64,000 bases of DNA from an uncultured Acidobacteriota bacterium (GCA_963700145.1 OY969474.1:2848001-2912000); one strand, 5' to 3'; shown: positions 7,372 through 55,185, counted from the first letter of the stretch. Program-made: numbers and translations. The notes: generated from the letters alone by a model not told the origin.

Positions 7372-7374
7372 CGG

Positions 7375-8139: not shown

Positions 8140-8174
8140 GCCGCATTAGACGTGCGGATGCAGCGCCAGTTGGG

Positions 8175-8582
8175 CTAGCAGCGCGCCCGCACGGCGCTGG
8201 CGAAGGCGAGGAGGTCGTCGAGGCGGTTGATGACGACCGACTCGACGATCCCGAGGTTCAGCGAGTCGTAGTCGTGGACCAGGACGTTGCGGAAGCTGGC
8301 CATCTCCTGAAGCGCCGCGGCCAGCTCGGGGGCGAGCCAGCCGGCGCGGCGCAGGAGATCGAAGAGGTCGCGGTTCGCGCCGGGCTCGCCCAGGCGCTCG
8401 TCGGAGACGACGTGCGAGGCGACGTCGAGCGCCGCTTCGATCGCCAGATGCAGGGTGCGAGTCACGAACCGCTCTTCGCGGACGTCCTCGTGCAGGCGGT
8501 CCAGCCGCGACATGGTGCGCAGCTCGCGCACGTACGTCTCGACCGCAGCCAGCTTCTTGAAGACCAGGTCGCGGTCGGTCAT
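8175..8582 (-). CDS. HEPN (DUF86/HepT-like) RNase toxin
   Basis: Rx4H motif FRNVLVHDY. Coupled to the upstream nucleotidyltransferase. Confidence 0.9.
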   Translation of the reverse strand: MTDRDLVFKKLAAVETYVRELRTMSRLDRLHEDVREERFVTRTLHLAIEAALDVASHVVSDERLGEPGANRDLFDLLRRAGWLAPELAAALQEMASFRNVLVHDYDSLNLGIVESVVINRLDDLLAFASAVRARC

Positions 8583-11342: not shown

Positions 11343-14501
<3,159 letters not shown>

Positions 14502-26264: not shown

Positions 26265-27839
26265 CTACAGTGGAATGTTGCCGTGCTTCTTGGGCGGCAG
26301 GCTGGCGCGCTTGCTGCCGAGTTGGTGCAGCGCGCGGATGACCATCGGCCGCGTCTCGCGCGGCTCGATGACGGCGTCGAGGAAGCCGCGCTCGGCGGCG
26401 ATGTAGGGGTTCGAGAACTTGGCGCGGTACTCGGCGACCTTCTGCTGGCGCAGCGCCGGGGCGCCGGCGCCGGCGGCGTCGAGCTCGCGCTTGTAGAGGA
26501 CGTTGACCGCGCCCTCCGGGCCCATGACGGCGATCTCGGCCGTCGGGTAGGCGTAGTTGACGTCGGTGCGCAGGTGCTTCGAGGCCATGACGCAGTAGGC
26601 GCCGCCGTAGGCTTTGCGGGTGATGACGGTGATCTTCGGCACCGTCGCCTCGGCGTAGGCGTAGAGGAGCTTGGCGCCGTGCTTGATGATGCCGCCGAAC
26701 TCCTGCTGCGTGCCGGGCAAAAAGCCGGGGACGTCCTCGAAGGTGACGAGCGGGATGTTGAAGGCGTCGCAGAAGCGGACGAAGCGGGCGCCCTTGAGCG
26801 AGGCGTCGATGTCGAGGACGCCGGCCAAGTACGCGGGCTGGTTGGCGACGACGCCGACGCTGCGGTTGCCCAGCCGCGCGAAGCCGACGACGATGTTCTT
26901 GGCGTACCGCGCGTGAACCTCGAGGAACTTGCCGTCGTCGACGACCAGGGCGAGGAGCTGTTTGATGTCGTAGGGCTTGTTGGGGTCTTCGGGGACCAGG
27001 CTGTTGAGCCGCTCGTCGGCGCGGTCGGGGTCGTCCTCGCTGTGGCCGGCCGGCGGCTCGTCGAGGTTGTTGCTCGGCAGGTACGAGAGGAGGTCGCGGA
27101 CCGCCGCCAGGCAGGCGGCGTCGTTGGGCTCGGTGAAGTGGCAGACGCCGCTCTTGGTGGCGTGGGTCGAGGCGCCGCCCAGCTCTTCCTTGGAGACCTC
27201 TTCGTGGGTGACGGTCTTGATGACGTCGGGGCCGGTCACGAACATGTAGCTCGTGCCTTCGACCATGAAGACGAAGTCGGTGATGGCGGGCGAGTAGACG
27301 GCGCCGCCGGCGCAGGGGCCCATGATGGCGCTGATCTGGGGCACGACGCCGGAGGCCAGGGTGTTGCGCAGGAAGATGTCGGCGTAGCCGCCCAGGGAGG
27401 CGACGCCTTCCTGGATGCGGGCGCCGCCGGAGTCGTTGAGGCCGATGACGGGGGCGCCGTTCTCGACGGCGAGGTCCATGAGCTTGCAGATTTTCTGGGC
27501 GTTGGTTTCGGACAGGGAGCCGCCGAAGACGGTGAAGTCCTGGGCGAAGACGTAGACGAGGCGGCCGGCGACGGTGCCGTAGCCGCCGACGACGCCGTCG
27601 CCGGGGACGCGTTTGCCGTCCATGCCGAAGTCGCGGCAGCGGTGGGTGACGAGGGCGTCGATTTCTACGAAGGAGGCGGGGTCTAGGAGGAGCTCGACGC
27701 GCTCGCGGGCGGTGAGTTTGCCGGCTTCGTGCTGGCGGGCTACGCGGTCGGTGCCGCCGCCTTCGGTGGAGGCGCGCATGCGCGCTTGCAGCTCGGCAAG
27801 GGCCTGTTGCTGCGCGCTGATGGTGGGGGACGAAGACAT
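26265..27839 (-). CDS. pccB: Acyl-CoA (propionyl-CoA) carboxylase beta subunit
   Basis: [30 protein letters not shown]-terminal KKHGNIPL. Confidence 0.9.
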
Positions 27840-27860
27840 GAGATGAGGGGCGATCTTACC

Positions 27861-28060
27861 TTAGGGGTGTTCGGGGGTTGGGGAAAGGGGACCGTTCGGG
27901 GGGACTCGCCCGGGGACCGGCGCGCGCTTTGAAGACTGCCGAGGGTGGCGCGCGCCTGCGCTCCGCTGCGCGCGGGGTCGCTGGGGGACTGCGGTGGGGT
28001 TGCCGGCGCTTGCGGAGAGCTCCCCGGGCGAGTCCCCCCGAACGGCCCCCTGGCACCGTC
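27861..28060. repeat. Palindromic ~200-bp element, copy 1
   Basis: Arms at 27887-27916 and 28021-28050 are 29/30 complementary. The interior is similar to 36100-36209. Confidence 0.8.
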
Positions 28061-28085
28061 GGTGGTGGGGAGGAGGGGCCCCCCG

Positions 28086-28168
28086 CCCAGATCCTTCGCT
28101 GCGCTCAGGATGACAAGGCAGGGGTACACCGCTTCGCACGTCATCCTGAGCGCAGCGAAGGATCTGGG
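28086..28168. repeat. REP-like inverted doublet
   Basis: CCCAGATCCTTCGCTGCGCTCAGGATGAC at 28086-28114 and its exact reverse complement at 28140-28168. A related copy is at 50569-50600. Confidence 0.85.
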
Positions 28169-28195
28169 GGCGGAAAGATAGCCGACTAGAATCCG

Positions 28196-29506
28196 ATGGT
28201 GCCCTTCTCCCACGTAGACACCGCCGCCGTAGCCCGCCTGCTGTCGCAGCTCGCGGAGCGGGAGGAGGACATCGCGGACGCATTTTTCGAGCGGGTGGAG
28301 GAGGTGGAGGTGGCGCCTGAGGGCGAGGCGCCGCGGGTTCGGGTGCGGCGGGAGGAGGGGTTTGCGGTGCGGCTGGTGCGGGAGGGGCGGACTTGGCTGG
28401 CGGCGCGGGACGAGCTGGCGCCGCGGGCGTTTGCGGAGGCGCTGCGGCAGGTGGCGCGGGCGTTGGCGCCAGCCTCTTATCCGGAGCCGGCGCTCTCGGG
28501 GGTGCCACCGGGGGCGGCGGGGGCGCTGGAGCTGCTGGAGCTGCCGGGGGCGGTGGAGCGGGCGGTGCGGGCGGAGCACGTGGGGTTTCCGCTGCGGGTC
28601 GGGGTGCGGCGGCACCGGCGGTGGGTGCAGGTGGTGGGGCCGCGGCTGGTGCCGGCGGCGGAGAGCGAGACGTTTTACAGCGCCGTCGTCGAGACGCCGT
28701 GGGGGCGGCACGGGGCGCTGCTGCCGGAGCTGGGGGTCGCGGCGGCGGCGGGGCTCGCGGCGGCGGCGGTGGCGCTCTTCCGCGCCCGCGAGGCGCCGCC
28801 GCCGGCACCGGACCGGATGACCGCCGTGCTCGGGCCCGGCGCCGCGGCGGTGCTTCTCCACGAGGCGGTGGCGCACGCTCTCGAGAGCGACACGCTGGCG
28901 CTCGGCGGCCCGGTCGAGGCGGCGGTGGGGGTGGCGCTCGCGGCGCCGGCGCTCGACGTCCTCGACGACCCGTCCGCGGCGCCGCCCGGCGTGCGGCGGA
29001 CGACCGACGACGAGGGGATGCCGGTCTGCCGGCGGTGGCTGCTGCGCGGGGGGATCGTCGAGCAGCCGCTCGCGGACGCCCTCGCCGCCCGTGCCTCGCC
29101 GGCCCTGGTGCCGGGCGCGGCGCGGCGCGGCAGCCGGCACCTGCCGCCCGGCCCGCGCTCGCACCACCTGGAGCTCCTCCCCGGCACGCTCGACGACGCC
29201 GCGCTCCTGGCCGGCGCCGAGGGCGGGCTCTACGTCGCCGAGGCGGTGCGCGGCGCGCTTGACGCGCTCTCCGGCGAGTTCCGCCTCGAGGTGGCGGCGG
29301 CGCGGCGCATCCGCCGGGGCGCCCTCGCCGAGCCGGTCGGCGCGTTCACCCTCGCCGGCCGCGTCGCCGACCTCCTGGCGCGGGTCTCCGGCGTCGGCGC
29401 CCGGGCGGTGCCCGCAGGCGCCGGCTGGTGCGCCAAGGGAGGCGCGAAGCTCCCGGTCTGGGCGACGACGCCGGCGCTGCGGCTCGACGGCGTTGACGTG
29501 GCGTAG
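28196..29506 (+). CDS. TldD-like metalloprotease
   Basis: LLHEAVAHALE, DDEG, C-terminal GWCAKGG...TPAL. Confidence 0.8.
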   Translation: MVPFSHVDTAAVARLLSQLAEREEDIADAFFERVEEVEVAPEGEAPRVRVRREEGFAVRLVREGRTWLAARDELAPRAFAEALRQVARALAPASYPEPALSGVPPGAAGALELLELPGAVERAVRAEHVGFPLRVGVRRHRRWVQVVGPRLVPAAESETFYSAVVETPWGRHGALLPELGVAAAAGLAAAAVALFRAREAPPPAPDRMTAVLGPGAAAVLLHEAVAHALESDTLALGGPVEAAVGVALAAPALDVLDDPSAAPPGVRRTTDDEGMPVCRRWLLRGGIVEQPLADALAARASPALVPGAARRGSRHLPPGPRSHHLELLPGTLDDAALLAGAEGGLYVAEAVRGALDALSGEFRLEVAAARRIRRGALAEPVGAFTLAGRVADLLARVSGVGARAVPAGAGWCAKGGAKLPVWATTPALRLDGVDVA

Positions 29507-29513
29507 GCTGGTA

Positions 29514-29532
29514 TCCTTGCGTCGAGCAAGGA
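29514..29532. promoter_or_regulatory. Palindromic operator, probably for TA autoregulation
   Basis: TCCTTGC-gtcga-GCAAGGA lies just upstream of the antitoxin gene. Confidence 0.5.
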
Positions 29533-29553
29533 ATCGCAAGTGAGGTAAGGAAA

Positions 29554-29793
29554 ATGGCAGCCAGCACGCTCACGAGCAAGGGCCAGCTCACCATGCCCAA
29601 AGCGATCCGGGAGCGCCTGGGTCTGCGCGAGGGAGACAGAGTGGAGTTCCGGGTGACGGAGAACGGCCAGGTGCTGGTCGAGGCCGTCACCGTCGACCTG
29701 CGTGAGTTGCGGGGAGCCCTCAAGACCCAGGGCCGGCCGGTGTCGGTCGAGGAGATGGAGGAGGCGGTGCGGAGCGCAGGGACGCGCTTGTGA
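29554..29793 (+). CDS. AbrB/MazE-type antitoxin (VapB)
   Basis: STLTSKGQLTMPKAIRERLGLREGDRVEF. Confidence 0.9.
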   Translation: MAASTLTSKGQLTMPKAIRERLGLREGDRVEFRVTENGQVLVEAVTVDLRELRGALKTQGRPVSVEEMEEAVRSAGTRL

Positions 29794-30185
29794 TCGGCCT
29801 CGACACCAACGTCCTCGTTCGCTACCTCGTCGAGGATGACCCCGATCAGGCGCCGCGCGCCGCGGCGCTCATTGAGCAAGCCTCCGAGGCGGGCGAGCGC
29901 CTGTTCGTGCCGCAGATCGTACTGTGCGAGATCGTGTGGGTCCTGGAGAGCGCCTTCCGCTTCCCGCCAGAAAAAATCGTCTCGGTCCTCGCCGCCCTCC
30001 TGCGCTCCCGCCAGCTCGTCATCGAAGACGTCGGCACGTCGCGGCTTGCCCTCGAGCGCTACGCGGCGCGCGGCGGTGATTTCGCGGACTACCTCATCAT
30101 CGAGCGCTGCCGCGCCGCAGGCTGCGAACGCGTGGCCTCCTTCGATGGAGGACTGGCCTCGGAGGAGGGCGTCTTCGCGCCTTGA
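29790..30185 (+). CDS. vapC: PIN-domain VapC toxin
   Basis: IGLDTNVLVR, E..WVL, DFAD, SFD. GTGA overlap with the antitoxin. Confidence 0.9.
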   Translation: MIGLDTNVLVRYLVEDDPDQAPRAAALIEQASEAGERLFVPQIVLCEIVWVLESAFRFPPEKIVSVLAALLRSRQLVIEDVGTSRLALERYAARGGDFADYLIIERCRAAGCERVASFDGGLASEEGVFAP

Positions 30186-30198
30186 GCGCCGGCGATCC

Positions 30199-31506
30199 GT
30201 GCAGTCCCTTCTCGACGAAGTGCTGGTCGCGCTCACCCGCCAGGGCCTGACGCGCGCCGAGATCTACGCCAAGCGCGGGCGCTCGCGGCGGCTGGAGCTG
30301 GGGCCCGGCGGCGAGATTGCGAGCTTCCACGAGGAGCGCGGCTGGGCGGTGCGCGCCGGCACCGGGCGCGGCGCCTTCTTCACCGCCGCGACCGGCGAGC
30401 CCGACCCCGGCGCCACCTGGCCGGCGATCGACGGCCCGGCGTTGGAGCTGCCGGAGGCGGCGGCGCCGGCGCCGTGGAGCGAGCCGTCCGACTTCGAGAC
30501 GCCGCTGGTCGGCGAGAGCGAGGGGCTGCGCCTCCTCGCCGGCCTGGCGCGCGAGCTGGAGAGTGAGCTGCCCGGCGCGCGGCTCCTCACCGCCGTCCTG
30601 GAGGACGGCTCCAGCGAGGCCGAGCTGGCCAGCTCGCGCGGCGTGCGGGCGCGGGTGCGCGGGCGGGTGGCGGCGCTGCGGCTGGAGGCGGCGCTGCCCG
30701 CCCGCGGCACGGCGCGGGACGGGGCACGCGCCAGCGTCTACCTCGCGGCGCGGGAGGCGCGCCGCTTCGCCCCGAGCGCGCTCGCCCGGCGGCTCGCCGA
30801 CGCCCTCTCGGTGCGCGCCGGCGGCGCTCCCCCGCCGCCCGAGAGCGGCGGCGAGCTGCTGCTGGCGCCGGCGGTCGGGGCGCGCCTCCTGGCCGCGCTC
30901 CTGCCGCTCTTCGTCGGGCCGGAGGCGCCGGCGCGCACCGCGGCGCTGCGCGACCGCCAGGGGCGGCTCGGCTCGGCCGCGCTGACGCTGATCGACGACG
31001 GGCGCCTGCCGGGCGGGGTCTTCGAGGCGGCGGTGGACGGCGAGGGAGTGCCCTGCCGCGCGGCGACGCTGGTCGAGCGCGGCGTCTTCCGCGGCCCGCT
31101 CCTCGCCTGGCGTCAGGCGCGCGGCGGCGAGGGCGCCGCCGGTTGCAGCCGCCGTCCGAGCTGGCGCGACCTGCCGGCCCCCGGCCCGACCCACCTCTAC
31201 CTCCAGCCCGACCCGAAGCTCGCGGTGGCGGCGCTCCTCGGCGGCATCGACCGCGGCGCCTACCTGATCGAGCCGACCGGCGCGCCGCGCATCGACTGGG
31301 CCGGCGGCCGCTTCGCCCTGCCGGTCTGCGGCCTGGCGGTGGCCGGCGGGCGGGCCGAGGCGCCGCTCGCCGGAGCGTGGCTCTCGGGCGAGATCGGCGC
31401 GCTCCTCCAGGGGGTACGCGCCGCGGCGCGGGACCTCACCTTCTTCCCCTTCGACGGCATGCTCGGCGCGCCGACGCTCCTGGTGACCGGGCTGGAGCTG
31501 CGGTAG
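30199..31506 (+). CDS. PmbA/TldE-like protein
   Basis: AEIYAKRG..., LTLIDDG....DGEGVP, C-terminal GAPTLLV. No HExxxH motif. Confidence 0.75.
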   Translation: MQSLLDEVLVALTRQGLTRAEIYAKRGRSRRLELGPGGEIASFHEERGWAVRAGTGRGAFFTAATGEPDPGATWPAIDGPALELPEAAAPAPWSEPSDFETPLVGESEGLRLLAGLARELESELPGARLLTAVLEDGSSEAELASSRGVRARVRGRVAALRLEAALPARGTARDGARASVYLAAREARRFAPSALARRLADALSVRAGGAPPPPESGGELLLAPAVGARLLAALLPLFVGPEAPARTAALRDRQGRLGSAALTLIDDGRLPGGVFEAAVDGEGVPCRAATLVERGVFRGPLLAWRQARGGEGAAGCSRRPSWRDLPAPGPTHLYLQPDPKLAVAALLGGIDRGAYLIEPTGAPRIDWAGGRFALPVCGLAVAGGRAEAPLAGAWLSGEIGALLQGVRAAARDLTFFPFDGMLGAPTLLVTGLELR

Positions 31507-31925
31507 TCCCCGCCGGGCCCGCGGCAGTCCCCGCCGGTCCCGCGGTAGTCGCCGCCGAGCCCGCGGTGATCGCCGCCGTCCGAAAAGAGACCGCCGCGGT
31601 CCGAAAAGCGTACGCCGCCGGCCTCGCGGTGTTCGCCGCCAAGCCCGCGGCGATCGCCGCCGTCCGAAAAGAGACCGCCGCGGTCCGAAAGGCGACCACC
31701 TCCGTCCGAAAGGTGACCGCCGCCAGCCCCGCGGCGCTCGCCGCCAAGCCCGCGGCGATCGCCGCCGTCCGAAAGGCGTACGCCGCGGTCCGAAAGGCGA
31801 CCACCTCCGTCCGAAAGGTAACCGCCGCCAGCCCTGCGGCGATCACCGCCGAGCCCGCGGCGCTCGCCGACGTCCGAAAGGCGCACGCCGCGGTCCGAAA
31901 GGCGACCACCTCCGTCCGAAAAGGC
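31503..31925. repeat. Tandem array of about 20 x 21-bp units with a higher-order 105-bp duplication
   Basis: Two unit types alternate, one with GTCCGAAA and one with AGCCCGCG. Confidence 0.9.
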
Positions 31926-31968
31926 GACCGCGGCCGGTCCCGCGGCGGGCTCTCCCTCCCCGGCGGGC

Positions 31969-32345
31969 TCAAACCGCTCGGATCACCAGCCTCCCGGAGC
32001 GCACCTCCACCTCGACCCCCCGTCCCACCTCGAACCCGGCCGCCCGTAGCCACCTCCCGGAGAGCCGCAGGGAAGGCGCTGCCCCCGCCGGATGCCACCG
32101 CGCCGACACCGTCCCTGCCCGCCGCCCCTCCGCCCGCGCCCACCGCGCTCCCTCAACTCCTCCCCCCGCGTCTCCTCGCGGAGCGCAGCGGTCTCTGCCG
32201 CCTGCTCGTGGAGCTCGAGCAGCCGGCGATCCTCGGCGGAAAACGGATCGGGGTTGGGGAGGTAGGGACTGGAGAAGGGGCCGGGCTGGGCCGGCCGGCA
32301 AACGCGGTTGCTACACTTCGTCCCACGGCTGGACATAGAGCTCAT
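31969..32345 (-). pseudogene. SymE-like type I toxin, possibly frameshifted
   Basis: PSLRLSGRWLRAAGFEVGRGVEVEVRSGRLVI is in one frame. A plausible N-terminus is in an adjacent frame. Confidence 0.6.
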
Positions 32346-32595
32346 ACCTCCGGTCTGGTCGAGGGCGCGGCAGAGCGGTAAACTCTGTCGCGCCCGCTTT
32401 CACTTCTCGGCCGGCGCGCTGACGCGGCCGGCTTCACGCGCTTCGTCGCCCTTCTACGCCGAACTTACGGCATCAGAAAACACCATACCAGTCAACGGCA
32501 TCAGCGAGAGTACTCTACCAGCAATACTCATACGCGACAAGCCGAGTTCGCTAGTCGTCCAATCTCTGGAGGGGAGTGTTCATCACCTCAACACA

Positions 32596-34272
32596 ATGAT
32601 CGACTTTGCCGCAATTCAGGGGCCTCGTGGCTCGAGGGAAGCTAACTTCGCACAATTGGTCGGCGAGGTTCTGGCACGCGAACGTAAGGCCTTCACACTC
32701 GACGGCGCGGGAGGTGATGAAGGTATCGACTCCTATGCGACAGATGAAACCGGCGTCCTTACGATCTTTCAGGCGAAATACTTTAGGGGCCGTATAAGCT
32801 CTTCTCGTCGCTCCCAGATACGGCGCTCGTTCGATATCGCGCAGCGACACCCAAAACCATTTCGCTGGATCCTCTGCACTCCGGTTGACCCGACACCTGC
32901 TGAAGGCCGTTGGCTACAATCGCTGGCGATCGGCAAAGACACGACTGTTGAGTGGTGGGGCGAAACCTACCTGCGGAGCCTGATTTCTCGCCATGTCGAT
33001 CTTGTGGCAGCTTTTTTCCCAGAGCAAAGAATTCTTTCTGAACTGAAGACTATCCGTCAAGAGCTGGGCTCCTATCATGCAATTGTAAGCGCCAAAGCAT
33101 CCTTCCTACGATACGGGGAAAGTGTTGAGGGCGTATATCTCAGAGAAGCGGCCGAGCTTTCGCGGCTCCTTCATGAAGACAGACCACTTGCGGAAAAGCC
33201 TGGGGGCGGCAGCCTCGTTGTAATAGATTTTAGTGAGTTATATCGGTACATGGCAACTGTGCCCACGTTAGTCCTTGCTCGGCCGATTGTGGATTACTGC
33301 ATTGAAACCTCTCCCGCTCCTCTTACGCTTGCACCCGGGGGTACCCTACATCTGCACCGCCTAACGAAAGCGATCGCCTATGATACGCCTCCATGGCGAG
33401 CAATCCGTAATTTTGAACAGGAGCTTCTGGCCATGCGAGATGCTTTCGTAAGCTCCTATGAGAGTGATCCGAAAGGTAAAGCAACTGCGCGCGCTTACAA
33501 CCAACTGATGCACGCTGTCGCTCCATCCGAACATTTAACATATAGTGGTCTTCAACGTCTGACGAAATTGTTCCGTAGTGGACGACTACGGCCTTGGAGC
33601 CGCGCCACTCCCCCCGGAGATGAGCTCCTATTCAAGATCCACCATCGCCTCGAAATGATTCGCCAAGGACGGAGCTTTGCGAACCTAGCCAGCTCTATAG
33701 ACCTGCGAGCTATTATAGAAGCTCGAGAATCAGGAGAGAGCAGCGTAACAGTAGTGACTTCGGCTCCTTACTTTCGGCTCATCGCCGCTGATATATTCGC
33801 CAACGACTCGCCTATCAGGTCGACGCGTCAATACGGTCAGTTGCTGTACCTTGCCGAACTAAGCCGAACTGGCGTCGATTGGACAGGGATTTTAGACACC
33901 CTCGGAGATGTCATCGATGGGATGCAGAGAATTCTGCCTGGGCTAGATGCATTCCTCGATGGTAGCAGTCTTCTTAGTCATAAAGAAGTAGAAGTGTTAG
34001 AGCGGTTTGCCAAGTGCTATAGAATTCTGCTAAGGCCGGTGGACCAGATGGTCGAGAGTGGATTTCAAGCGGTAAACAGGAGCGCACTCGCTTCGATGAC
34101 GGAGCTTTATCGGGCGCTGAGTTCGGAAGCGGAGCTCACGGCCGCCTTTCGTGTATGGTGGGAGCGGCTATGTATGGCTGCTGCTGAATTGCAGGAATAT
34201 CTCACTGATAACTACGATACCGACGAACTAACCACTCTGTTTGCGTCAGTCAGAGGAAAGGAGGTCAAGTGA
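32596..34272 (+). CDS. Restriction-endonuclease-like (PD-(D/E)xK) domain fused to an unknown or PIN-like domain
   Basis: DGAGGDEGID...IFQAKYF motif. Lower GC than the flanks. Confidence 0.65.
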   Translation: MIDFAAIQGPRGSREANFAQLVGEVLARERKAFTLDGAGGDEGIDSYATDETGVLTIFQAKYFRGRISSSRRSQIRRSFDIAQRHPKPFRWILCTPVDPTPAEGRWLQSLAIGKDTTVEWWGETYLRSLISRHVDLVAAFFPEQRILSELKTIRQELGSYHAIVSAKASFLRYGESVEGVYLREAAELSRLLHEDRPLAEKPGGGSLVVIDFSELYRYMATVPTLVLARPIVDYCIETSPAPLTLAPGGTLHLHRLTKAIAYDTPPWRAIRNFEQELLAMRDAFVSSYESDPKGKATARAYNQLMHAVAPSEHLTYSGLQRLTKLFRSGRLRPWSRATPPGDELLFKIHHRLEMIRQGRSFANLASSIDLRAIIEARESGESSVTVVTSAPYFRLIAADIFANDSPIRSTRQYGQLLYLAELSRTGVDWTGILDTLGDVIDGMQRILPGLDAFLDGSSLLSHKEVEVLERFAKCYRILLRPVDQMVESGFQAVNRSALASMTELYRALSSEAELTAAFRVWWERLCMAAAELQEYLTDNYDTDELTTLFASVRGKEVK

Positions 34273-34486
34273 GGCCGCAGAGCATGGTGCCGAACCCGGC
34301 CCCTTGAACGACGTTCGGCTTCGTCGTCGGTCTCGTGTATGCCAACGATACCGACGCAACGCATCGACGGGCTCTCGATACTCGTGCGCGGGCTCTCGAG
34401 CCGGCCGACATGCCCTATGGGAACCGCCGTTGTATGGTGGAAGATCTCTGAGGTAACACCTGGCAAATCGCCACTCGTAGGAGGTC

Positions 34487-34975
34487 ATGATGCCGCCTAG
34501 TCCGTCGATGCCGCCGGTCGCCAAGGCGCAGATGCTCATCCGCAAGCCGGTCACGGAGGTGTTCGAGGCGATGGTCGATCCCGCCGTCACTTCGCGCTTC
34601 TGGTTCTCCAAGGGCAGCGGCCGGCTGGAGGCCGGCAAGCACGTTCGGTGGGACTGGGAGATGTACGGCGTCTCCGCCGAGGTCGACGTGAAGGAGGTCG
34701 AGGAGAACCGGCGGATCCTCGTCGAATGGGGCGGGCCGGACAACCCGACCTCGATCGAGTGGACGTTCGAGCCCCGAGGCGAGGACCGGACCTTCGTCAC
34801 GGTCAAGAACTGGGGCTTCGGCGGCGACGCGGAGAAGGTTGTCGCGGAGGCACTCGATTCGACCGGCGGCTTCACCTTCTTGCTCGCCGGCCTCAAGGCG
34901 TTCCTGGAGCACGGGATCGAGTTGAACCTCATCGCCGACCACGAGCCGACCGCGCTCGTCGAAGGCTGGGCTTAG
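34487..34975 (+). CDS. SRPBCC (AHSA1/START) family protein
   Basis: MLIRKPVTEVFEA.VDP..TSRFWFSKGSGRLE...LKAFLEHG. Confidence 0.85.
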   Translation: MMPPSPSMPPVAKAQMLIRKPVTEVFEAMVDPAVTSRFWFSKGSGRLEAGKHVRWDWEMYGVSAEVDVKEVEENRRILVEWGGPDNPTSIEWTFEPRGEDRTFVTVKNWGFGGDAEKVVAEALDSTGGFTFLLAGLKAFLEHGIELNLIADHEPTALVEGWA

Positions 34976-34987
34976 CCTCCCGCCGCG

Positions 34988-36052
34988 ATGCAGCTCGGCA
35001 TCCTTGGTCTTCCCAAGGTCGGCAAGACGACCCTTTTCAACACGCTCACGGCGTCGCGCCAGGAGACGGGGAAGTTCGCTGCCTCGGCGGCGACGAACAT
35101 GGGGGTGGCTTCCGTACCGGACCGGCGACTGGAGCAGCTTCGGGACCTGTTCAAGCCGCGGCGGTATCAGCCGGCGACGGTGCAGTATGTGGACATCCCG
35201 GGGATCTCGCGCGGCGAGGGGAAGGAGAGCCTGGACCTCGTCAAGCTCAAGGGGATGGACGCGCTGGTGCACGTGGTGCGGGCCTTCGTCGATCCGGAGA
35301 TCGTGCACGCCGAGGGGAGCGTGGATCCGGCGCGGGACATCGCGACGCTCGACCTGGAGCTGATCCTGGCCGACCACGATCTGGTGGAGCGGCGGCTGGA
35401 GCGGCTGGAGAAGGCCGTGAAGCGCGGGCTCTCGGAGGAGGAGAAGCGGGAGCGGACGCTGCTCCAGGAGGTGGTGCTGCCGCGGCTGGAGGCGGAGCGG
35501 CCGCTGCGCGAGGCGGAACTCGAGCCGGACGACGAGCGGCGGCTGCGCGGGTTCCAGCTGCTGTCGGCGAAGCCGCTCCTGGTAGTGCTGAACGTGGACG
35601 AGGGACGGGTGGCGGAGCACGCGGAGCGGGAGCTGACGCTCGGGACGGCGGTCAGGGCGGTGGCGGTGTCGGCGCCGATCGAGGAGGAGATCGGGCGGCT
35701 GGCGCCGGAGGAGCAGGCGGAGTTTCTGGGGGCGCTGGGGTTGGAGGAGCCGAGTCTGGATCGGGTGGCGCGGGCTAGTCAGGAGCTTCTTGGGTTGATC
35801 TCTTTTTTCACTGTCGGGGAGGACGAGGTGCGGGCTTGGACGGTGCGGCGGGGGACGCGGGCGCGGGCGGCTGCCGGGACGATTCACTCGGATATCGAGC
35901 GGGGGTTTATTCGGGCGGAGGTGGTGCGGTGGGATGAGCTGCTGCGGTTGCGGACGTTGGCGGCTTGCCGGGAGCAAGGGGTGCTGCGGTTGGAGGGGAA
36001 GGAGTATGCCGTGCAGGACGGGGACGTGGTGCATTTTAGGTTCAACGTCTAG
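34988..36052 (+). CDS. ychF: Obg-family ATPase YchF
   Basis: GLPKVGKTTLFN, HVVRAF, AAGTIHSDIERGFIRAE, LEGKEYAVQDGD, C-terminal FRFNV. Confidence 0.95.
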   Translation: MQLGILGLPKVGKTTLFNTLTASRQETGKFAASAATNMGVASVPDRRLEQLRDLFKPRRYQPATVQYVDIPGISRGEGKESLDLVKLKGMDALVHVVRAFVDPEIVHAEGSVDPARDIATLDLELILADHDLVERRLERLEKAVKRGLSEEEKRERTLLQEVVLPRLEAERPLREAELEPDDERRLRGFQLLSAKPLLVVLNVDEGRVAEHAERELTLGTAVRAVAVSAPIEEEIGRLAPEEQAEFLGALGLEEPSLDRVARASQELLGLISFFTVGEDEVRAWTVRRGTRARAAAGTIHSDIERGFIRAEVVRWDELLRLRTLAACREQGVLRLEGKEYAVQDGDVVHFRFNV

Positions 36053-36055
36053 GAG

Positions 36056-36246
36056 TTAGGGGTCGTGGTGGAGGGCGTGCGGGGGGCTTGCGCCGGGCAC
36101 CGCCGCGCGCTGTGAGTGGACTGCTTGATCTGAGGCGCGCGGCTGCGCTTCGCTGCGCGCCTGGATCGCTCTCGGACTGCGGAGGACCTGCCCGGCGCTT
36201 GCTCAGAGCTGCCCGGCGCAAGCCCCCCGCACGCCCTGGGACCGTC
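36056..36246. repeat. Palindromic ~190-bp element, copy 2
   Basis: Perfect 27-bp arms at 36073-36099 and 36210-36236. Confidence 0.8.
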
Positions 36247-36274
36247 CTACCGAAAAAACAGCAAGATCCTTCCC

Positions 36275-37258
36275 TTACCCAGCCGCTCCTAGGCCAGTCC
36301 TTGAGGTCCGCTGTCTCCTCGGGCTGATCTGGAGGTCCAGGCGGCCGGTGCTTTGGATGCCGGGGCGGACGATGACTGTGGTGGAAGGCGGGGGGATGGG
36401 CTCTTCCATCGTGTCGCCGCGGCCTTCGGGGTCTTGGGAGGTCCAGTCGGGCTGGGCGGGCGGGACGTAGGCTGGCGGGGGGGCCATGTTGCGGCCGCGG
36501 GGGACGCCGCCGCCGCCGCCGACCTGGTTGACTCCGCCTCCCTGGAGGCTGCCGGGCTGGAGGACTCGCGTTCCCTCGGGAGTAGCGCCGGGGGGCTGGG
36601 TCTGGATGCCGGGGATGGTCGGGGTGCCGGCGGTCTCGTCGCGCTCGGTGAGGGTCTCGTCGGGGGCGGCGACCGGGGGCACGAGGAGCTCGGCGATGCG
36701 GTTGGGCTGCTCGTAGACCGGCGGCGGGAAGGTGTCGGGCTCTTCGCCTTCGCTGTAGGCCTGGAGCATCGCCTCGGTCACCAGGTCGCTCTGGATCACC
36801 TGCGGGTTGATCTCCGGGAAGGCGAGCTGCGGGTCGAGGCGGAAGGCGCGGGCGTAGGACTCGATGGCCCGCGCGTCGTTGCCGTCGGCCTCGAGGAGAG
36901 CGCCGACCTGGAAGTGGGCCCAGGCGTGGCGCGGCTGCTGGTCCAAGACGGCGCGGTACTGGCGCAGCGCCTTGCGCCGCTCGCCGCGCTGCTGGAGGAG
37001 GAGCCCCAAGTTGAAGCGCGCCGAGACGCGTTCGGGGTCGAGCTCGAGGGCGCGCTGGTAGGCCTCCTCGGCCTCCTCCGGCCGGCCGGCCATCTGCAGC
37101 AGGTTGCCGAGGTCGTTGAATGCGCCGGGGTCGTCGGGCCGCTGCTGGACGAGCTGCCGCTGGACTTCAAGCGCCTTGGACAGGTTGGGGGGGGCCGCGG
37201 CCCAGGCGGTCAGGGCGATCAGCGGCAGGGCGAGCGCCCAGGGAATCCATCGTCGCAC
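36275..37258 (-). CDS. Exported TPR protein with Pro-rich tail
   Basis: Signal peptide and TPR motifs such as AFNDLGNLL...AYQRALELDP. Confidence 0.8.
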   Translation of the reverse strand: MRRWIPWALALPLIALTAWAAAPPNLSKALEVQRQLVQQRPDDPGAFNDLGNLLQMAGRPEEAEEAYQRALELDPERVSARFNLGLLLQQRGERRKALRQYRAVLDQQPRHAWAHFQVGALLEADGNDARAIESYARAFRLDPQLAFPEINPQVIQSDLVTEAMLQAYSEGEEPDTFPPPVYEQPNRIAELLVPPVAAPDETLTERDETAGTPTIPGIQTQPPGATPEGTRVLQPGSLQGGGVNQVGGGGGVPRGRNMAPPPAYVPPAQPDWTSQDPEGRGDTMEEPIPPPSTTVIVRPGIQSTGRLDLQISPRRQRTSRTGLGAAG

Positions 37259-44300: not shown

Positions 44301-45541
44301 CGGAACTCCATCTCGGAGAGCGGCGCTCCGTCGGACCAGTTCGGGGCCAGGCGGCGGGCGAAGTCCTCGCGGTTGGTGAGGTCCCAGTGCAGCGGGATCA
44401 TGTCGCCGCGGTCGAGGACGATCGCGGGGTCGAGCACGGTGTCCTGCTTGATCTTGTACGGGCTGCCGGCCACCCGCGGGTCCTGGTCGCCGATCTGGTC
44501 GAAGCCCGGGCCGCTGCGGGTCGGCACCGAGTCGTAGTTGCTCTCCCAGCCCTGGCCCGAGAAGGGCTTGTTGCCCGGGCCGCAGGTGCTATTGGCCTGG
44601 ACGTCCTGCCAGGCCCAGCCCATGCCGCGGCTCTGCTCCTCGTTGTTCTCGGGGTTGCCGCCCCCGCCGCCCCCGCCACCGCCACCCCCACCGCCCCCGC
44701 CGCCGCCACCGCCCCCGCCGCCGCCCCCCTGCCCGCAGTCGGCGAACTGGGCGCTGTTGGTCACCAGCTCGTCGGACATCAGGAACTCGGTCGAGTAGTC
44801 GAGGGTCGAGACGACCTCCTCGTGTTCCGTGAGGACCGGGGAAGGCAGGCACACCGTCGCCCTGTCGGTCGCGAAGCGGACCTGCAGGACGCCCGGTCCG
44901 AAGGCCCCGGCCTCGTGGCTGACGGTGAGCTTGTAGGTGTTGGCCCCCTTCTTGAGCCAGAGCGTTGTCGGCGCGTAGGTCAGGATGCCGTCGAGGTCGG
45001 GGTCGGTCGGCGAGAGCTTGGCGAAGCGGTCGACCTTGTCGAGGTCGGCGGCGCTGCTGGCGTTGAGCGGCGCGGCGCAAGTCCCCGCCACGCCCGGCGT
45101 CGCCGTCTCGAAGTGGGTGCCGAAGGTGACGAAGCTGCCGCGGCGCGGGTAGGCGAGGGCGGTGGACTGCGCCGACGCCGACTGCACCCGGTAGAGCCAG
45201 TGCTTGCCGCGCACGCGGAGCTGGTCCTGGTTGTAGGTCGCCAGCCCGAAGTGGATGGTGTCGCCGTTCTCCTGGTAGGTCTCGGTCAGCACCTGGAGCA
45301 ACGCCTGCTTGACCTGCAGGAACTTGGAGGTGACGCCGTCGCCGCTGCCGTGCACCCAGGTGTCGTCGGGCGCCAGGTTCATCGAGGTCGAGGTGTCGAT
45401 GATGAAGTAGACGTAGGGCTTGCCCGACTGGATCTTGAAGAGCAGCGTGTCGTCGCCGGCCGCGTAGCCGGCGAGCAGGGCGGCGGCGAGCACGCCGGCG
45501 ACGGCGGCGCGGAGCGGGAGCTGGGATCGGCGAGTGCGCAT
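41333..45541 (-). CDS. pilY1: Type IV pilus tip adhesin, PilY1-like
   Basis: vWA-like IIDTSTSM, LGDIFHS, VGANDGQLHVF, GRELFAFVP, Ca-binding DTDQDGYLD. Contains a poly-Gly tract. Confidence 0.9.
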   Translation of the reverse strand: MRTRRSQLPLRAAVAGVLAAALLAGYAAGDDTLLFKIQSGKPYVYFIIDTSTSMNLAPDDTWVHGSGDGVTSKFLQVKQALLQVLTETYQENGDTIHFGLATYNQDQLRVRGKHWLYRVQSASAQSTALAYPRRGSFVTFGTHFETATPGVAGTCAAPLNASSAADLDKVDRFAKLSPTDPDLDGILTYAPTTLWLKKGANTYKLTVSHEAGAFGPGVLQVRFATDRATVCLPSPVLTEHEEVVSTLDYSTEFLMSDELVTNSAQFADCGQGGGGGGGGGGGGGGGGGGGGGGGGNPENNEEQSRGMGWAWQDVQANSTCGPGNKPFSGQGWESNYDSVPTRSGPGFDQIGDQDPRVAGSPYKIKQDTVLDPAIVLDRGDMIPLHWDLTNREDFARRLAPNWSDGAPLSEMEFRAAAYFENAPRSDGFFHLKDADRRPLVPFGASPLNKSIVDFRCWYIGSEDQKCKSDFQPFGSGWDDVAVVKDFAEWGCRRPFLIVIGDGEAHGDNNDATAAVASLRQTRVKTWAIDFGGTCPPNSTYHSLTQAGKGECLTPQTYGELVDALRKIIGQIQQATKAFASAAVPTVQADVEQKVFLSNFNPLAPLVRPGFPDEPEPVWLGRMNAFRKPVPEEQDGTPKTSPACSDSVKRKCFLWDAGAELLKQTPEDPNDPVVIGPNPEDRRVYYSRLTANGQWPLARRAFETPATLPDRVDLYRGMGLPQSGDATTNQAIAVEVIREALALKTADLAGTPANLADDVPFVLGDIFHSNPVITGGPSNSLFFANNVNGYREFAQKHRFRRKMLIVGANDGQLHVFDAGVFRDKDDDGIAFTDPLDPEKNETFDDGTGRELFAFVPRASLRPLKDLYAGSGTNRTWSVDGTVAAADVRIDPRFVGVPNPDDPDSEDGPEWRTVLIGGMREGGSAYYALDITQPDTIRDHGDHLPHISGVPGDPGPWVPTCFDMAEDSSCGPVKFPAQLWEFTDSVYDALAGVPSRLDEDGNGRNDLAQTWSIPNIGRIRVLEANVPVDKYVAVFGGGLDTTNLAGNWLYMVDIETGQAIYKQTVDGAAPSEPAAVDTDQDGYLDRIYLGTNKGLMYRVDLRGPAGELPELAPVVLDVAQGLPPGLGPVTVQRILPTDLRFAPRVVFKAQQDATTPAVPPRAIFYRPSVIFIARRNEYALAFGVGQRNDLWSAEGQTGRFYVMRDDIRVDDKTTFYTEADLTQIDPASASTNTDFITDPGVAGKGWLLPLNADEKLITNPFALSGVLVFTVFDPDVLVTPGQGQEEPTCRRTGSSRIFAVNATNGNGLLYDTNLLPTRFTVIQDFVTEPYIEQGQTATAPGEEATSGQLAAHLNKVMQELQKLFPSNCKFANYRHDVKTLASDTGIIHIAPVPICIIEKNWKEF

Positions 45542-50612: not shown

Positions 50613-51131
50613 TCAATTCTTCTTCCCCTCCGGCCAGCGGATCATGTAGCCGTCGGTCCAGACGATGTCCTGGTCGTAGTCGGTGGTCTCGAAGCCGCCG
50701 GGGGTGTAGGTGTCACCGGTCTTCTTCTGGTCGCGGCCGCTGCTGCGGATCGCCATCACTTCCTTGCCCAGCGGGTTGGCGGTGTCGAGGTAGAAGTCGA
50801 AGGGGTGCTTCCAGCCGTCCAGCTGGGGCAGCTCCTGCATGTAGGTCGAGACCAGCTCGGCCTTCAGGTTGGTGGCGCTGATCGACGCGTACTTCGTGAG
50901 GTCCACCTGGTTGGTGGAGGCGCCGGCGGCGGCCGCCGCCGCCTCGTCGGTCAGCCAGGCCATCATCGCCGTGCCGGTCATCTGGACGTTGGCCAAGGTC
51001 CGCTTCTGCCGCGCCCGCTGCAGGGCGTCGATCAGGTTGGGGATGAGGATGGCGGCGATGATGCCGATGATGGCGATGACGATCAGCAACTCGATCAGCG
51101 TGAAGCCACGCTGCTCCGCTTTGCGCCTCAT
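50613..51131 (-). CDS. Type IV pilin / GspG-like, paralog 2
   Basis: RGFTLIELLIVIAIIGII, DGWKHPF, IRSSGRD. Confidence 0.9.
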   Translation of the reverse strand: MRRKAEQRGFTLIELLIVIAIIGIIAAILIPNLIDALQRARQKRTLANVQMTGTAMMAWLTDEAAAAAAGASTNQVDLTKYASISATNLKAELVSTYMQELPQLDGWKHPFDFYLDTANPLGKEVMAIRSSGRDQKKTGDTYTPGGFETTDYDQDIVWTDGYMIRWPEGKKN

Positions 51132-52714: not shown

Positions 52715-53239
52715 TTACGGCTTCTTGCGCCCTTCCGGCCAGCGGACCATGAAGCCGTCCGCCCAGACGATGTCCTGGTCGTAGTCCGTCGGGTTGAAGT
52801 TGGTGACGGTGTAGGTCGCGCCCTCGGCCTTGGTGTTGCGGCCGAAGCTGCGGATCGCCATCACCTTGGGGGCCAGCGGGTTCGCCGTGTTGAGGTAGAA
52901 CTCGTAGTCGAACTTCCAGCCGTCGAGCTGCGGCACTTCCTGCAGGTAGGTCGAGACGAGCTCGGTCTTGAGGTTGGCGTGCGTGATCTTCTTGTAGTCG
53001 GTGATCGTGACCTGACTCGCCGAGCCCGCCGCCGCGGCGCCGACCTGGTCGGTGAGCCAGGAGAACATCGCCGTGCCGGTGTTGCGCACGTCGGCCACCG
53101 TCCGCTTCTGCTTGGCCTTCTGCAGCGCGTCGAGGAAGTTGGGGATGAGCAGGGCCGCGATGATGCCGATGATCGCGACGACGATCAGCAGCTCGATCAG
53201 CGTGAACCCCCGCTGCCGGTTGCGAAGCCTCTTCAGCAT
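52715..53239 (-). CDS. Type IV pilin / GspG-like, paralog 1 (likely major pilin)
   Basis: RGFTLIELLIVVAIIGII. Strong RBS, own promoter and terminator. Confidence 0.9.
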   Translation of the reverse strand: MLKRLRNRQRGFTLIELLIVVAIIGIIAALLIPNFLDALQKAKQKRTVADVRNTGTAMFSWLTDQVGAAAAGSASQVTITDYKKITHANLKTELVSTYLQEVPQLDGWKFDYEFYLNTANPLAPKVMAIRSFGRNTKAEGATYTVTNFNPTDYDQDIVWADGFMVRWPEGRKKP

Positions 53240-54922: not shown

Positions 54923-55185
54923 GGACAAACGGACTGCGGCCGAGGGCAAACGTACTTTCGCCCAGTACGCGCGTACTTTCCCTGAGGGCAAGCGTACTTT
55001 TCGTCGGTACAAGCGTACTTTCGGTTGGTACAAGCGTACCGGCGCCTGGTACAACGTACTTTCCGTTGGTACAAGCGTACCGGCCGTCGGTACAAGCGTA
55101 CTTTTCCTTGGTACAAGCGTACTTTCGTCTAGTACAAGCGTACTGGCGCCTGGTACAGGCGTACCGCGCCCCGGTACTAGACTCG
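54923..55185. repeat. Tandem array: 12-bp core GTACAAGCGTAC plus 9 variable bp, about 12-13 units
   Basis: Units start at 54923, 54944, 54965, 54986, 55007, 55028, 55049 (20 nt), 55069, 55090, 55111, 55132, 55153 and 55174. Confidence 0.92.

Follow-up and report, generated by a model that had tools for sequence, protein, structure and literature searches.

Replication-associated strand asymmetry is usually ascribed to damage that DNA suffers while it is single-stranded. Transcription-associated asymmetry, as well as the GC skew of promoters with R-loops, sets an exposed strand against a preferentially repaired one and leaves the non-template strand with more G than C. In immunoglobulin somatic hypermutation, with its targeting elements, and in the leakage of fungal RIP into flanking sequence, a DNA element directs a cytosine-centred load to the neighbouring 1-2 kb; we know of no bacterial counterpart of such cis-targeted hypermutation. 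Abasic sites derived from uracil are reported to be fixed as C>T or C>G via translesion synthesis (PMC11230362), and strand compositional asymmetry has been covered by two reviews (PMC3269016 and PMC3269012). Here we describe a repeat of a soil bacterium, present twice in the analysed window (the whole stretch of 64,000 nucleotides), around which the strand on which the element reads in its defined orientation is poor in C and rich in G whatever the direction of the genes. We could not find an earlier description of such a local, orientation-locked one-strand bias for bacteria in the literature that we searched.

The element is a non-coding mobile repeat with 40 copies in the host genome (G000, 5.46 Mb; nhmmer search). 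Two 28-bp arms with near-perfect pairing flank an asymmetric core of ~110 nt, which is the conserved part, and the arm sequences differ from copy to copy; the length is ~165 nt between the outer arm ends and ~210-230 nt including the tails. Copy A (inverted repeat of 31 nt, 97% complementary; nhmmer score 93.7) and copy B (28-nt arms, fully paired; score 97.4) are listed with their surroundings in Table 1. Arms also change between orthologous copies: comparing the host with its relative G004, 30 differences in 237 aligned columns leave only 3 positions unpaired, and at locus 3647082 the copy has been replaced outright, the host arms being entirely unlike those of G001 and G003. Arm turnover and copy replacement are in keeping with repair synthesis or recombination that often takes place at the element. 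Six alignments of filled and empty sites gave no evident target duplication, and the Rfam 15 covariance models returned, for positions 27000-37000, a single miRNA match at chance level (E 0.52) and away from the elements. Another repeat family (m3) has the same build; the flank skews at its 4 solo copies are.305 and.26.

Table 1. Features around the two element copies; positions are those of the window.
Feature	Coordinates	Strand	Description
Copy A left halo	26700..27863	+	5' half of pccB-like carboxyl transferase gene; plus strand C-poor/G-rich at third positions
pccB-like carboxyl transferase gene	26265-27839	minus	Pfam PF01039
Element copy A	27864..28075	+	arms 27886-27916 and 28021-28051, conserved core between, right tail CTGGCACCGTCGGTGG
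REP-type palindrome adjoining copy A	28076..28178	.	unrelated to element; 322 blastn hits genome-wide
Copy A right halo	28196..28800	+	5' part of TldD/PmbA gene
TldD/PmbA gene (tldD)	28196-29506	plus	
Copy B left halo	35000..36052	+	ychF gene, skew climbing towards 3' end
ychF gene	34988-36052	plus	Pfam PF06071 and PF01926
Element copy B	36053..36268	+	arms 36072-36099 and 36210-36237, conserved core, right tail GGGACCGTCC...GAAAAAAC
Copy B right halo	36275..36750	+	3' end of TPR gene
TPR gene	36275-37258	minus	Pfam TPR families

A preliminary description of the window had proposed that the plus strand loses C near both copies in genes of either orientation, and that normal usage returns further out. 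Third-position skew in the four neighbouring genes, whose identities Pfam confirms, is far above background and bears this out. In the pccB-like gene, the plus-strand skew is +0.59 to +0.83 at 27225-27700, compared with about +0.13 for minus-strand genes elsewhere, and it is much weaker in the orthologs of genomes that do not have the element. On the other side of copy A, tldD moves to G/T-ending codons with a skew of +0.79 to +0.89 at 28318-28680 and comes down to ~0 by 28800. The same shift is seen in ychF, where values of +0.16/+0.47 climb to +0.82 near the 3' end and T-ending codons increase (10 and 7 per 40), and the TPR gene beyond copy B has a plus-strand skew of +0.33 to +0.56 at 36275-36700 and of +0.15 from 36755. 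Plus-strand GC skew in 400-bp windows has maxima of +0.385 (from 28223) and +0.457 (35367-36216, listed with the left halo of copy B), the latter within the top 0.1% of the genome (genome-wide sd 0.087, 99.9th percentile 0.321). The REP-type palindrome next to copy A was rejected as the source of the halo: it is absent from the copy A locus of G004, where element and halo are both present. Likewise, 107 REP-type palindrome loci elsewhere have no halo (mean oriented skew 0.010).

These halos recur throughout the host genome. Averaged over the element copies, oriented flank skew amounts to +0.205 (z = 23 relative to random intergenic sites, for which 1147 midpoints gave an sd of 0.056 and no value above 0.2), and 38 of the 40 have a positive value. 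The oriented meta-profile of the 40 copies stands at +0.25 to +0.28 at 250-450 bp on either side, with equal sign on both, and declines gradually to zero by about -1400 and +1100; at -350 bp, the oriented skew is positive in 37 copies. Of the 40 strongest merged clusters (|skew| > 0.33), 26 lie within 1.5 kb of an element copy, a zone that makes up 2.2% of the genome (binomial tail 1e-33), and all 26 have the sign given by the orientation of their element. The suggestion that the sign of the skew tracks element orientation and that its strength decays with distance thus holds genome-wide. The left flank is hit harder than the right (C>G.335 vs.142 per site).

Replication could expose the flanks if the hairpin stalled synthesis whenever the element strand is the lagging-strand template, leaving the adjoining DNA single-stranded in each round. 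The stronger effect on the left flank would suit such a process, as would a substitution spectrum akin to replication-associated skew (see below) and a slightly more stable predicted fold of the element strand than of its complement (-72.2 vs -70.3 kcal/mol; more stable in 31 of 40 copies). However, halo strength is 0.200 at the 21 copies co-oriented with the fork and 0.211 at the 19 opposed copies (Mann-Whitney p 0.74), with replichores inferred from gene-strand bias (origin near 2.58 Mb, terminus near 0.47 Mb), and oppositely oriented copies only 3.6-5 kb apart each have a halo of their own sign. The host genome has almost no skew on the scale of replichores. We consider stalled replication quite unlikely as the cause.

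The shift is strongest at third codon positions and similar in genes of both orientations, which were called crudely as stop-to-stop ORFs picked by GC3 minus GC2. Among 4-fold sites of genes on the element strand, the share of C is.23 instead of.50 and that of G.63 instead of.38; on the coding strand of opposite-strand genes, it is G that becomes scarce (.17 instead of.38) and C that becomes abundant (.68 instead of.50). T-ending NNY codons increase from 13.9% to 23.8% in same-strand genes only, and A-ending NNR codons from 14.1% to 35.1% in opposite-strand genes only. Counts of NNY and NNR codons further indicate that C>T is seen in place of C>G where the latter alters the protein. Amino acid usage changes as well: in same-strand genes Gly moves from.097 to.125 and Pro from.070 to.051, and in opposite-strand genes the two stand at.070 and.098. 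Asymmetry caused by transcription of the host genes themselves was rejected, given that it should make the coding strand the C-poor one, and the coding strand of opposite-strand genes is C-rich.

Selection on composition might also favour a G-rich, C-poor strand or RNA near the element, be it for G-quadruplexes, for avoidance of Rho loading or for avoidance of pairing with the arms, and the deficit of newly arising C on older branches (see below) could mean selection against C. We find this account very improbable. G-quadruplex motifs are not enriched (109 vs 109.5 in phase-preserving shuffles), which argues against selection for such structures, and G3+ runs number 1547 vs 1759 +/- 25 expected. 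In addition, protein composition is dragged along (Gly, Pro), G>T is raised, and the effect is blind to gene orientation, falling on the sense strand of some mRNAs and the antisense strand of others. Flanks would not travel with the element, so that selection at the level of the element should not reach them.

Relatives with and without the element bear on the timing. Copy A is missing at the empty site of G002, and copy B is wholly missing at the empty sites of G003 and G002, where the stop codon of ychF runs straight into the flank of the next gene. Third-position skew in codons 51-150 of tldD is +0.8 to +0.9 in G000, G001 and G004 and ~+0.6 in G003, compared with +0.31 to +0.38 in the element-less G002 and -0.60 to +0.29 across 14 genomes of other genera. 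Skew at empty sites is 0.01-0.14 vs 0.2-0.4 at filled ones (G002 at copies A, B and 4694389), and mean halo strength is graded among relatives (.278 in G004,.232 in G001,.184 in G003 and about.07-.12 in G002). Copy 4693464, found in G000 and G001 and not in G004, G003 or G002, has no halo and may be young.

The reverse order of events, with skew present first and the element inserting into such DNA or persisting nowhere else, is hardly credible to us. It could draw on three element-less flanks that are skewed, yet at least two of these hold deletion remnants of the element and kept their halo: G004 at 1644502 retains the left arm only, and G003 at 4694389 the left arm and the first part of the core; at the third, G002 at 3642676, there is no more than a possible remnant of 10 nt. 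Clean empty sites have little or no halo, other genera are without the skew, the apparently young copy has no halo, and none of the 1147 intergenic midpoints has a flank |skew| above 0.2, meaning that pre-skewed targets hardly exist.

Substitutions at 4-fold sites were polarised against the relatives, which are not mutually independent, at 11 of the 40 loci. On terminal branches, C>G (54/618, 3.0x, p 2e-11), C>T (2.4x), T>G (4.5x) and G>T (52/3519, 3.8x, p 2e-9) are raised on the element strand; G>C (0.80x), G>A (1.25x) and C>A (1.2x) are not, the complements of C>G, C>T and G>T thus staying near 1. T>C stands at 2.9x but with n = 8, and the classes from A have at most 3 events each. Older branches have stronger excesses of C>G (178/401, 5.7x) and C>T (5.0x) together with G>T at 3.4x, and G>C there is 0.35x background (31/1153, p 1.5e-9). 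The total substitution rate in halos is 1.46x on terminal branches. The polarised substitutions show that the halo developed in place and is still in production.

The preliminary description had read the pattern as C-to-T plus C-to-G on one strand. Both changes are indeed raised, but in net terms C to G predominates, and G>T is also in excess; the damage is therefore not limited to cytosine. Insertion of A or C opposite lost bases of the element strand would be expected to yield C>T, C>G, G>T, T>G, A>G and A>T on that strand only. The clearly raised classes belong to this set, although changes from A and T are too few to weigh and T>C is somewhat raised too. C>T per site by 5' neighbour is 20/120 for A, 27/182 for C, 31/241 for T and 13/328 for G (.17,.15,.13 and.04), a test confounded by codon constraints, and no deaminase-type sequence context emerges from it at the mutated cytosines.

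The association with the element, its orientation rule, the decay with distance, the post-insertion origin and the substitution spectrum lead us to favour, at about even odds, a strand-specific mutational process directed by the element, as the preliminary description had supposed, probably via recurrent single-strandedness of the element strand. The complementary strand would be nicked, removed or displaced repeatedly at the element, the resulting gap is assumed to extend in both directions, and the element strand would consequently often be single-stranded. Base loss, deamination and oxidation in this state could not be excised, and because of this the lesions would be bypassed during copying, mostly with A or C inserted by a bypass polymerase. 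After insertion, ~1 kb on either side would then evolve asymmetrically, and neighbouring housekeeping genes would gradually become G-rich and C-poor on the element strand at their synonymous sites and in some amino acids, in any gene direction. Two observations sit uneasily with this scheme: a pure damage model does not predict the low G>C of older branches, which hints at an added fixation or repair bias, and the left flank is more affected than the right although the nick is assumed to spread both ways. A search for a partner enzyme in G000 yielded no Y1/HUH transposase and, among three reverse transcriptase genes, none less than 28 kb from a copy; a single RNA run, with low-depth contigs, gave no cover on the element.

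The low G>C would suit a fixation bias, which we regard as rather unlikely. Here, the element would start recombination or one-strand uptake in transformation, the same strand would always enter the heteroduplex, and G and T would be favoured on that strand through unequal mismatch repair or through damage that came in with the imported DNA strand. The fall of G>C with branch age (0.80x terminal, 0.35x older), the growth of the C>G excess from 3.0x to 5.7x, the symmetric, tract-like decay and the replacement or conversion of element copies all point this way. Nevertheless, a preference for G over C does not lead one to expect an excess of G>T without an excess of C>A, and terminal-branch asymmetry stems from raised rates out of C, with no matched rise and fall. 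Moreover, the flanks of G000 and G004 share an unremarkable level of identity (about 94-95% at copy A), and nothing in this points to additional homogenisation.

A similarly improbable source, in our view, is transcription that runs through the element in the element's orientation, whether R-loops form or not. The non-template strand would be exposed and the template repaired by transcription-coupled repair, and rising G-richness would promote further RNA:DNA hybrids. Complementary classes at or below background are what preferential repair of the template would yield, and the direction of the asymmetry matches that of non-transcribed strands, known for more G than C and more T than A. However, the upstream halo is equal or stronger, so that 40 unrelated loci would each need a transcription start ~1 kb upstream. 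Genes co-oriented with the element and genes opposed to it undergo a similar shift, and full halos surround copies whose called neighbours are both opposed (e.g. 2318250 and 4710435, by the crude calls). In a weak test, neither window copy had a sigma-70-like promoter or an intrinsic terminator.

As a repeat, the element resembles REPINs/REPs and MITEs in that it is small and non-coding, forms a hairpin, occurs between genes in multiple copies and is present in some strains but not in others. Several assignments were nonetheless rejected. For a REPIN/REP-RAYT system, no RAYT (Y1 HUH transposase, PF01797) was found in G000 (one contig, 95% complete) by a search that hit 6 of 14 control genomes, and the short conserved REP palindromes that form inverted doublets in REPINs are lacking, the conserved core being asymmetric and the arms variable. 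A MITE of a DDE transposon is disfavoured by arms that vary between copies and orthologs and by the lack of an evident target-site duplication; variable arms around a conserved core are the reverse of transposase-bound terminal repeats. The three PF00078 matches (474447, 1963756 and 4151947) are at least 28 kb from the nearest element copies, which speaks against a retron, whose reverse transcriptase gene directly adjoins the non-coding RNA gene, and changes from both C and G over ~2 kb of unrelated genes, with no template repeat, do not fit a diversity-generating retroelement, in which changes are adenine-specific and fall in a variable repeat. The accessible parts of the literature searched contained no report of a halo for REPIN/REP or MITE families.

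The favoured process, element-directed mutation of one strand, has partial parallels among known asymmetries. Like replication-associated skew, the halo gives one strand an excess of G relative to C and of T relative to A, but it is local (~2 kb), 5-10 times stronger at synonymous sites and centred on a mobile element, and its sign is set by the orientation of that element, not by the inferred direction of the fork. From transcription-associated asymmetry it differs by being independent of host gene direction, by occupying both sides of the element and by the lack of a promoter-like site. Kataegis in yeast and cancer genomes, which combines APOBEC activity with abasic-site bypass, likewise puts both C>T and C>G on a single strand over ~1 kb; unlike it, the halo has no TpC or other clear context, includes raised G>T, has built up over evolutionary time under purifying selection and not in single events, and is bacterial and tied to a cis element. 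Somatic hypermutation and RIP share with it the direction of mutations by a DNA element, yet the halo bears no deaminase signature, its total rate is up only 1.5-1.8 fold, and the genes that it reshapes are housekeeping genes, unlike the targets of diversification.

Loss of C from one strand around the two palindromic elements of the window, as claimed in the preliminary description, is real and recurs at most of the 40 copies of this element in the source genome (G000), a single contig of 5,455,767 bp and 71.5% G+C, in which the window spans 2,848,001-2,912,000 and replichore-scale GC skew is almost nil. Beside the two window copies, plus-strand GC skew in 400-bp windows reaches +0.385 and +0.457, against a genome background with a standard deviation of 0.087 and a 99.9th percentile of 0.321. 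Plus-strand third-codon-position skew peaks at +0.83 in pccB, +0.89 in tldD, +0.82 in ychF and +0.56 in the TPR gene (all four names were confirmed by Pfam), is ordinary again within a few hundred bases outward, and T-ending codons accumulate toward the end of ychF.

Features of the window (plain coordinates) and of other regions (prefixed by genome)
Feature	Position	Strand	Remark
pccB-like carboxyl transferase	26265-27839	minus	Pfam
Palindromic elements, two copies	~27864-28075; 36053-36268		
REP-type palindrome, separate	28076-28178		arms contain GTCATCCTGAGCGCAGCGAAGGATC; 322 blastn hits in genome
TldD/PmbA	28196-29506	plus	Pfam
Arrays of diverged 21-bp tandem repeats	31489-31942; 54928-55177		spacings 21, 21, 63
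Low-G+C island	32300-34300		~52% vs 71.5%
Stretch without match in G004	~32420-34330		
YchF	34988-36052	plus	Pfam
TPR protein	36275-37258	minus	Pfam
Run of CCGCCCCCGCC-type repeats	44658-44732		9- to 15-bp; proline-rich if translated
Similar pair, ~500 bp each	50617-51114; 52722-53216		74-80% identical, 2.1 kb apart
1.6-kb repeat, 4 copies	G000 663575-665206; 1091105-1092748; 1703966-1705608; 4942702-4944157		93-99.9% identical
Solo m3 copies	G000 1948790; 4223219; 4624761; 5152143		strong two-sided halos
f2 composite repeat, example	G000 2927320-2927922		outside window
1.9-kb segments at the 2321910 and 3647082 element sites	G004 L052 about 6419-8314; L039 about 11936-13837		

Several other features of the window stand on their own. 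The first 21-bp array lies at the end of the second TldD-like ORF, where the skew is negative. The low-G+C island contains a 654-aa ORF with no Pfam match, and the stretch lacking a counterpart in G004, the closest relative, is for that reason probably a recent acquisition. The ~500-bp pair looks like a tandem gene or domain duplication.

When flanks are oriented by the element (27 copies on the plus and 13 on the minus strand, by nhmmer), skew averages +0.25 to +0.28 between 250 and 450 bp out on either side. It is positive at -350 bp in 37 of the 40 copies and has decayed to zero near -1400 and +1100 bp. The DNA up to 1.5 kb from a copy makes up 2.2% of the genome and contains 26 of its 40 strongest skew clusters; in all 26 the sign matches element orientation (binomial tail 1e-33). 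The proposed coupling of sign to orientation, with decay over distance, thus holds genome-wide. Mean flank skew is +0.205 at the 40 copies (z = 23) and 0.010 at 107 REP-type loci. That the skew existed before the element arrived is hardly credible: among 1147 intergenic midpoints (sd 0.056) none has a flank |skew| above 0.2, so such skew is almost absent away from elements. An assembly artefact is excluded, since four other assemblies show the same halos at the orthologous loci and reading frames are intact. Neither nhmmer score (rho 0.20, p 0.21) nor G-richness of the left arm (rho 0.24, p 0.14) correlates significantly with halo strength. As for the 14 extreme clusters away from the element, four belong to the ends of the 1.6-kb repeat, a probable insertion sequence, and are accounted for by the strong GC skew that one of its ends has by itself; four contain a second repeat module, m3; one is internally repetitive, 90%-GC DNA; and the remaining five fall into none of these classes.

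The element measures ~165 nt from arm to arm. Of the 40 copies, 31 have perfectly paired arms (mean length over all copies 27.9 bp) and 33 a G-rich left arm. The arms enclose a conserved, asymmetric core in which, as judged by eye, a GGCGCGCGC/GCGCGCGCC hairpin and a long-range pairing both covary. By a similar count, about half of the copies end in GG(G/C)ACCG, many of these with an A-rich tail. The REP-type palindrome, which often adjoins copies, has no halo itself. Rfam returned nothing relevant over window 27000-37000, where the element is unmatched; a Y1/RAYT transposase is absent from G000, and its three reverse transcriptases are all remote from the copies; one of them adjoins a weak nhmmer hit (E 9.5) that was put down to chance. 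A 26-nt core motif was found at 19 loci in 185,579 species genomes, 17 of them in four Thermoanaerobaculia MAGs that are apparently the relatives compared here; the two gammaproteobacterial loci, intragenic, matching 33 model positions and lacking a halo, were dismissed as chance. Among the species genomes scanned with this motif, the family does not extend beyond the genus of G000. Soil metagenome contigs contain the window stretch.

Halos also surround solo copies of m3, which is built similarly to the element (shared short motifs, by eye) and forms the 3' module of f2, a 600-bp composite present at 24 G000 loci that joins a 5' module, a REP palindrome and m3. The four solo m3 copies have halos of.305 and.26, and 17 copies inside the younger f2 composite have almost none. 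In an nhmmer comparison at E < 50, f2 and the element were not linked. As a second family, m3 may hint at a widespread, overlooked class of mobile elements leaving strand-specific mutational footprints in host DNA.

The order of pccB and tldD is shared by 40 relatives. Third-position skew over tldD codons 51-150 is +0.8 to +0.9 in G000, G001 and G004 and about +0.6 in G003, all of which carry the element, versus +0.31 to +0.38 in G002 of the same genus and -0.60 to +0.29 in 14 genomes of other genera, all of which lack it. Six 20-kb segments holding 12 copies were aligned to the four congeners, which pairwise identities arrange as (((G000,G004),G001),G003),G002. Presence proved polymorphic, with at least five copies absent from G002, three from G003 and two from G004; blastn finds only 4 copies in G002 and 17-29 in the other relatives. 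Flank skew at absent copies is typically 0.01-0.14 in G002 versus 0.2-0.4, and mean halo strength is graded across relatives (G004.278, G001.232, G003.184, G002 about.07-.12). Alignment of filled with empty sites showed the left arm alone remaining in G004 at 1644502, the left arm and start of the core in G003 at 4694389, and a possible 10-nt remnant in G002 at 3642676; the skewed flanks without an element at these sites, or at least at the first two, are thus explained by loss of the element, with the halo left behind. Clean empty sites lack the arms, which are therefore part of the insert. Copy 4693464, without a halo, occurs in G000 and G001 and not in G004, G003 or G002, a confinement by which it may be young. 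The halo grows with time since insertion, so halos may date insertions and reveal lost copies.

The copies themselves turn over. Orthologous cores of G000 and G004 are 82-97% identical in genomes about 94-95% identical overall, and 30 of 237 aligned left-arm columns differ, with only three unpaired positions across all arms. At 3647082 the G000 arms are entirely unlike those of G001 and G003 (loci L043, L041), which shows that whole copies are exchanged for, or converted by, another member of the family. Repair synthesis or recombination occurring often at the element would fit this turnover. Two 1.9-kb G004 segments at element sites, suspected of being an autonomous parent, are unrelated to each other; the one at 2321910 reads by eye as ordinary genes, with an epimerase-like and a methyltransferase-like ORF. 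Sites where genes were lost or replaced are thus marked by the element in G000.

In coding sequence (stop-to-stop ORFs chosen by GC3 minus GC2, hence crude calls) the shift is strongest at third positions and affects genes co-oriented with and opposed to the element. At 4-fold sites 90-600 bp away, C falls from.50 to.23 and G rises from.38 to.63 in same-strand genes; in opposite-strand genes the coding strand has C.68 and G.17. Change from C to T appears where C to G would alter the protein: NNY codons ending in T increase from 13.9% to 23.8% (139/583) in same-strand genes only, NNR codons ending in A from 14.1% to 35.1% (223/636) in opposite-strand genes only, and the Leu codons TTG and CTA are commoner, each in its matching gene class. 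The switch to G/T-ending or C/A-ending codons noted beforehand is borne out by these counts, with the refinement that, on balance, C is mainly replaced by G. Same-strand genes gain Gly and lose Pro; opposite-strand genes do the reverse.

Polarising substitutions by parsimony over five related, non-independent genomes (11 of the 40 loci) confirmed strand-specific excesses of C>G and C>T on terminal branches. The pattern recurs when all third positions are used and split into deep, middle and terminal layers, and the process making the halo is therefore old and still active.

Substitutions at 4-fold sites on the element strand, 110-800 bp from a copy, relative to background sites over 2.5 kb away from every copy
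Change	Terminal count	Terminal ratio	p	Older count	Older ratio
C>G	54/618	3.0x	2e-11	178/401	5.7x
C>T	16 events	2.4x	0.003		5.0x
G>T	52/3519	3.8x	2e-9		3.4x
T>G	7 events	4.5x			
T>C	8 events	2.9x			
G>C		0.80x		31/1153	0.35x
G>A		1.25x			
C>A		1.2x			
Total rate		1.46x			1.78x

T>C apart, the raised classes are those that insertion of A or C opposite the element-strand base would produce, changes from A being too rare to bear on this. Such a pattern would be expected where an unrepaired template is copied past abasic or miscoding lesions. No clear dinucleotide context, including a deaminase-type one, accompanies the halo substitutions, and the left flank is more affected than the right (C>G.335 vs.142 per site). 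Terminal-branch rates of C>G and G>C (.087 vs.023) predict a 4-fold skew near 0.58; the observed value is 0.70. The low G>C on older branches suggests an additional repair or fixation bias and speaks for strand-specific conversion or uptake bias, which we nevertheless consider an unlikely origin of the halo.

The sign of the halo is equal on both sides and depends on element orientation rather than on gene or fork direction, and its gradual decay resembles a tract-length distribution. We regard the halo as probably mutational and directed by the element. Exposure of one strand during replication is improbable as its source: with an origin near 2.58 Mb and a terminus near 0.47 Mb, both placed from gene-strand bias, 21 fork-co-oriented copies average 0.200 versus 0.211 for 19 opposed ones (p 0.74), and opposite copies 3.6-5 kb apart each keep their own sign. 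Selection is slightly more improbable still; for G-quadruplexes, neither G-runs nor motifs are enriched. Transcription or R-loops at the element form another unlikely source, on a par with conversion. Host transcription is contradicted by independence from gene direction, and ten copies with both neighbours opposed (by crude gene calls) mostly retain full halos. Promoter and terminator scans at both window copies, a weak test, found none. In the one RNA run, low-depth contigs reach parts of ychF and of the TPR gene without touching the element, a result that weighs for neither side.

Two-sided sign, gradual decay, element turnover and an excess of changes out of C and G on one strand, with their complements at or below background level, together fit an event on the complementary strand. 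A sequence-specific nick, gap or displacement there would extend in both directions from the element, and the element strand would be repeatedly single-stranded, unrepairable and copied across lesions. Chances seem about even that a one-strand event at the element spreads both ways and leaves the element strand single-stranded. Only tentatively do we propose that the element is a cis site for undescribed machinery opening or gapping one specific strand for ~1 kb on either side, by nicking, strand displacement or strand-directed resynthesis.

Replication, transcription and sequence context are the usual explanations for local mutation rate and spectrum in bacteria. In G000 both appear to be governed, around each insertion, by a small mobile element, which would be a new determinant in bacteria, and the effect is large enough to reverse synonymous codon preference and to alter the Gly/Pro content of conserved genes. 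If this is true, each insertion acts as a small, orientation-defined mutator that changes codon usage in adjacent housekeeping genes and, in part, their proteins. Halos can also imitate signals in scans for codon usage, horizontal transfer and selection. A real process of this kind would offer a natural readout of strand-specific DNA opening or repair, and it bears on the part that one-stranded damage and lesion bypass play in shaping bacterial genomes; if ordinary transcription or recombination at the element is the cause, the case would be striking but conventional. The retrieved passages of the full-text literature outside subscription journals hold no report of a bacterial repeat with an orientation-locked halo on host genes. 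Replication and transcription skews display a similar asymmetry, and cis-targeted hypermutation follows the same logic as an element-centred halo. The asymmetry likewise resembles that of strand-coordinated mutation clusters in single-stranded DNA with abasic-site bypass, as described in passages of PMC11230362, and according to passages of PMC3999860 mismatch repair is able to mutate flanking DNA in human cells.
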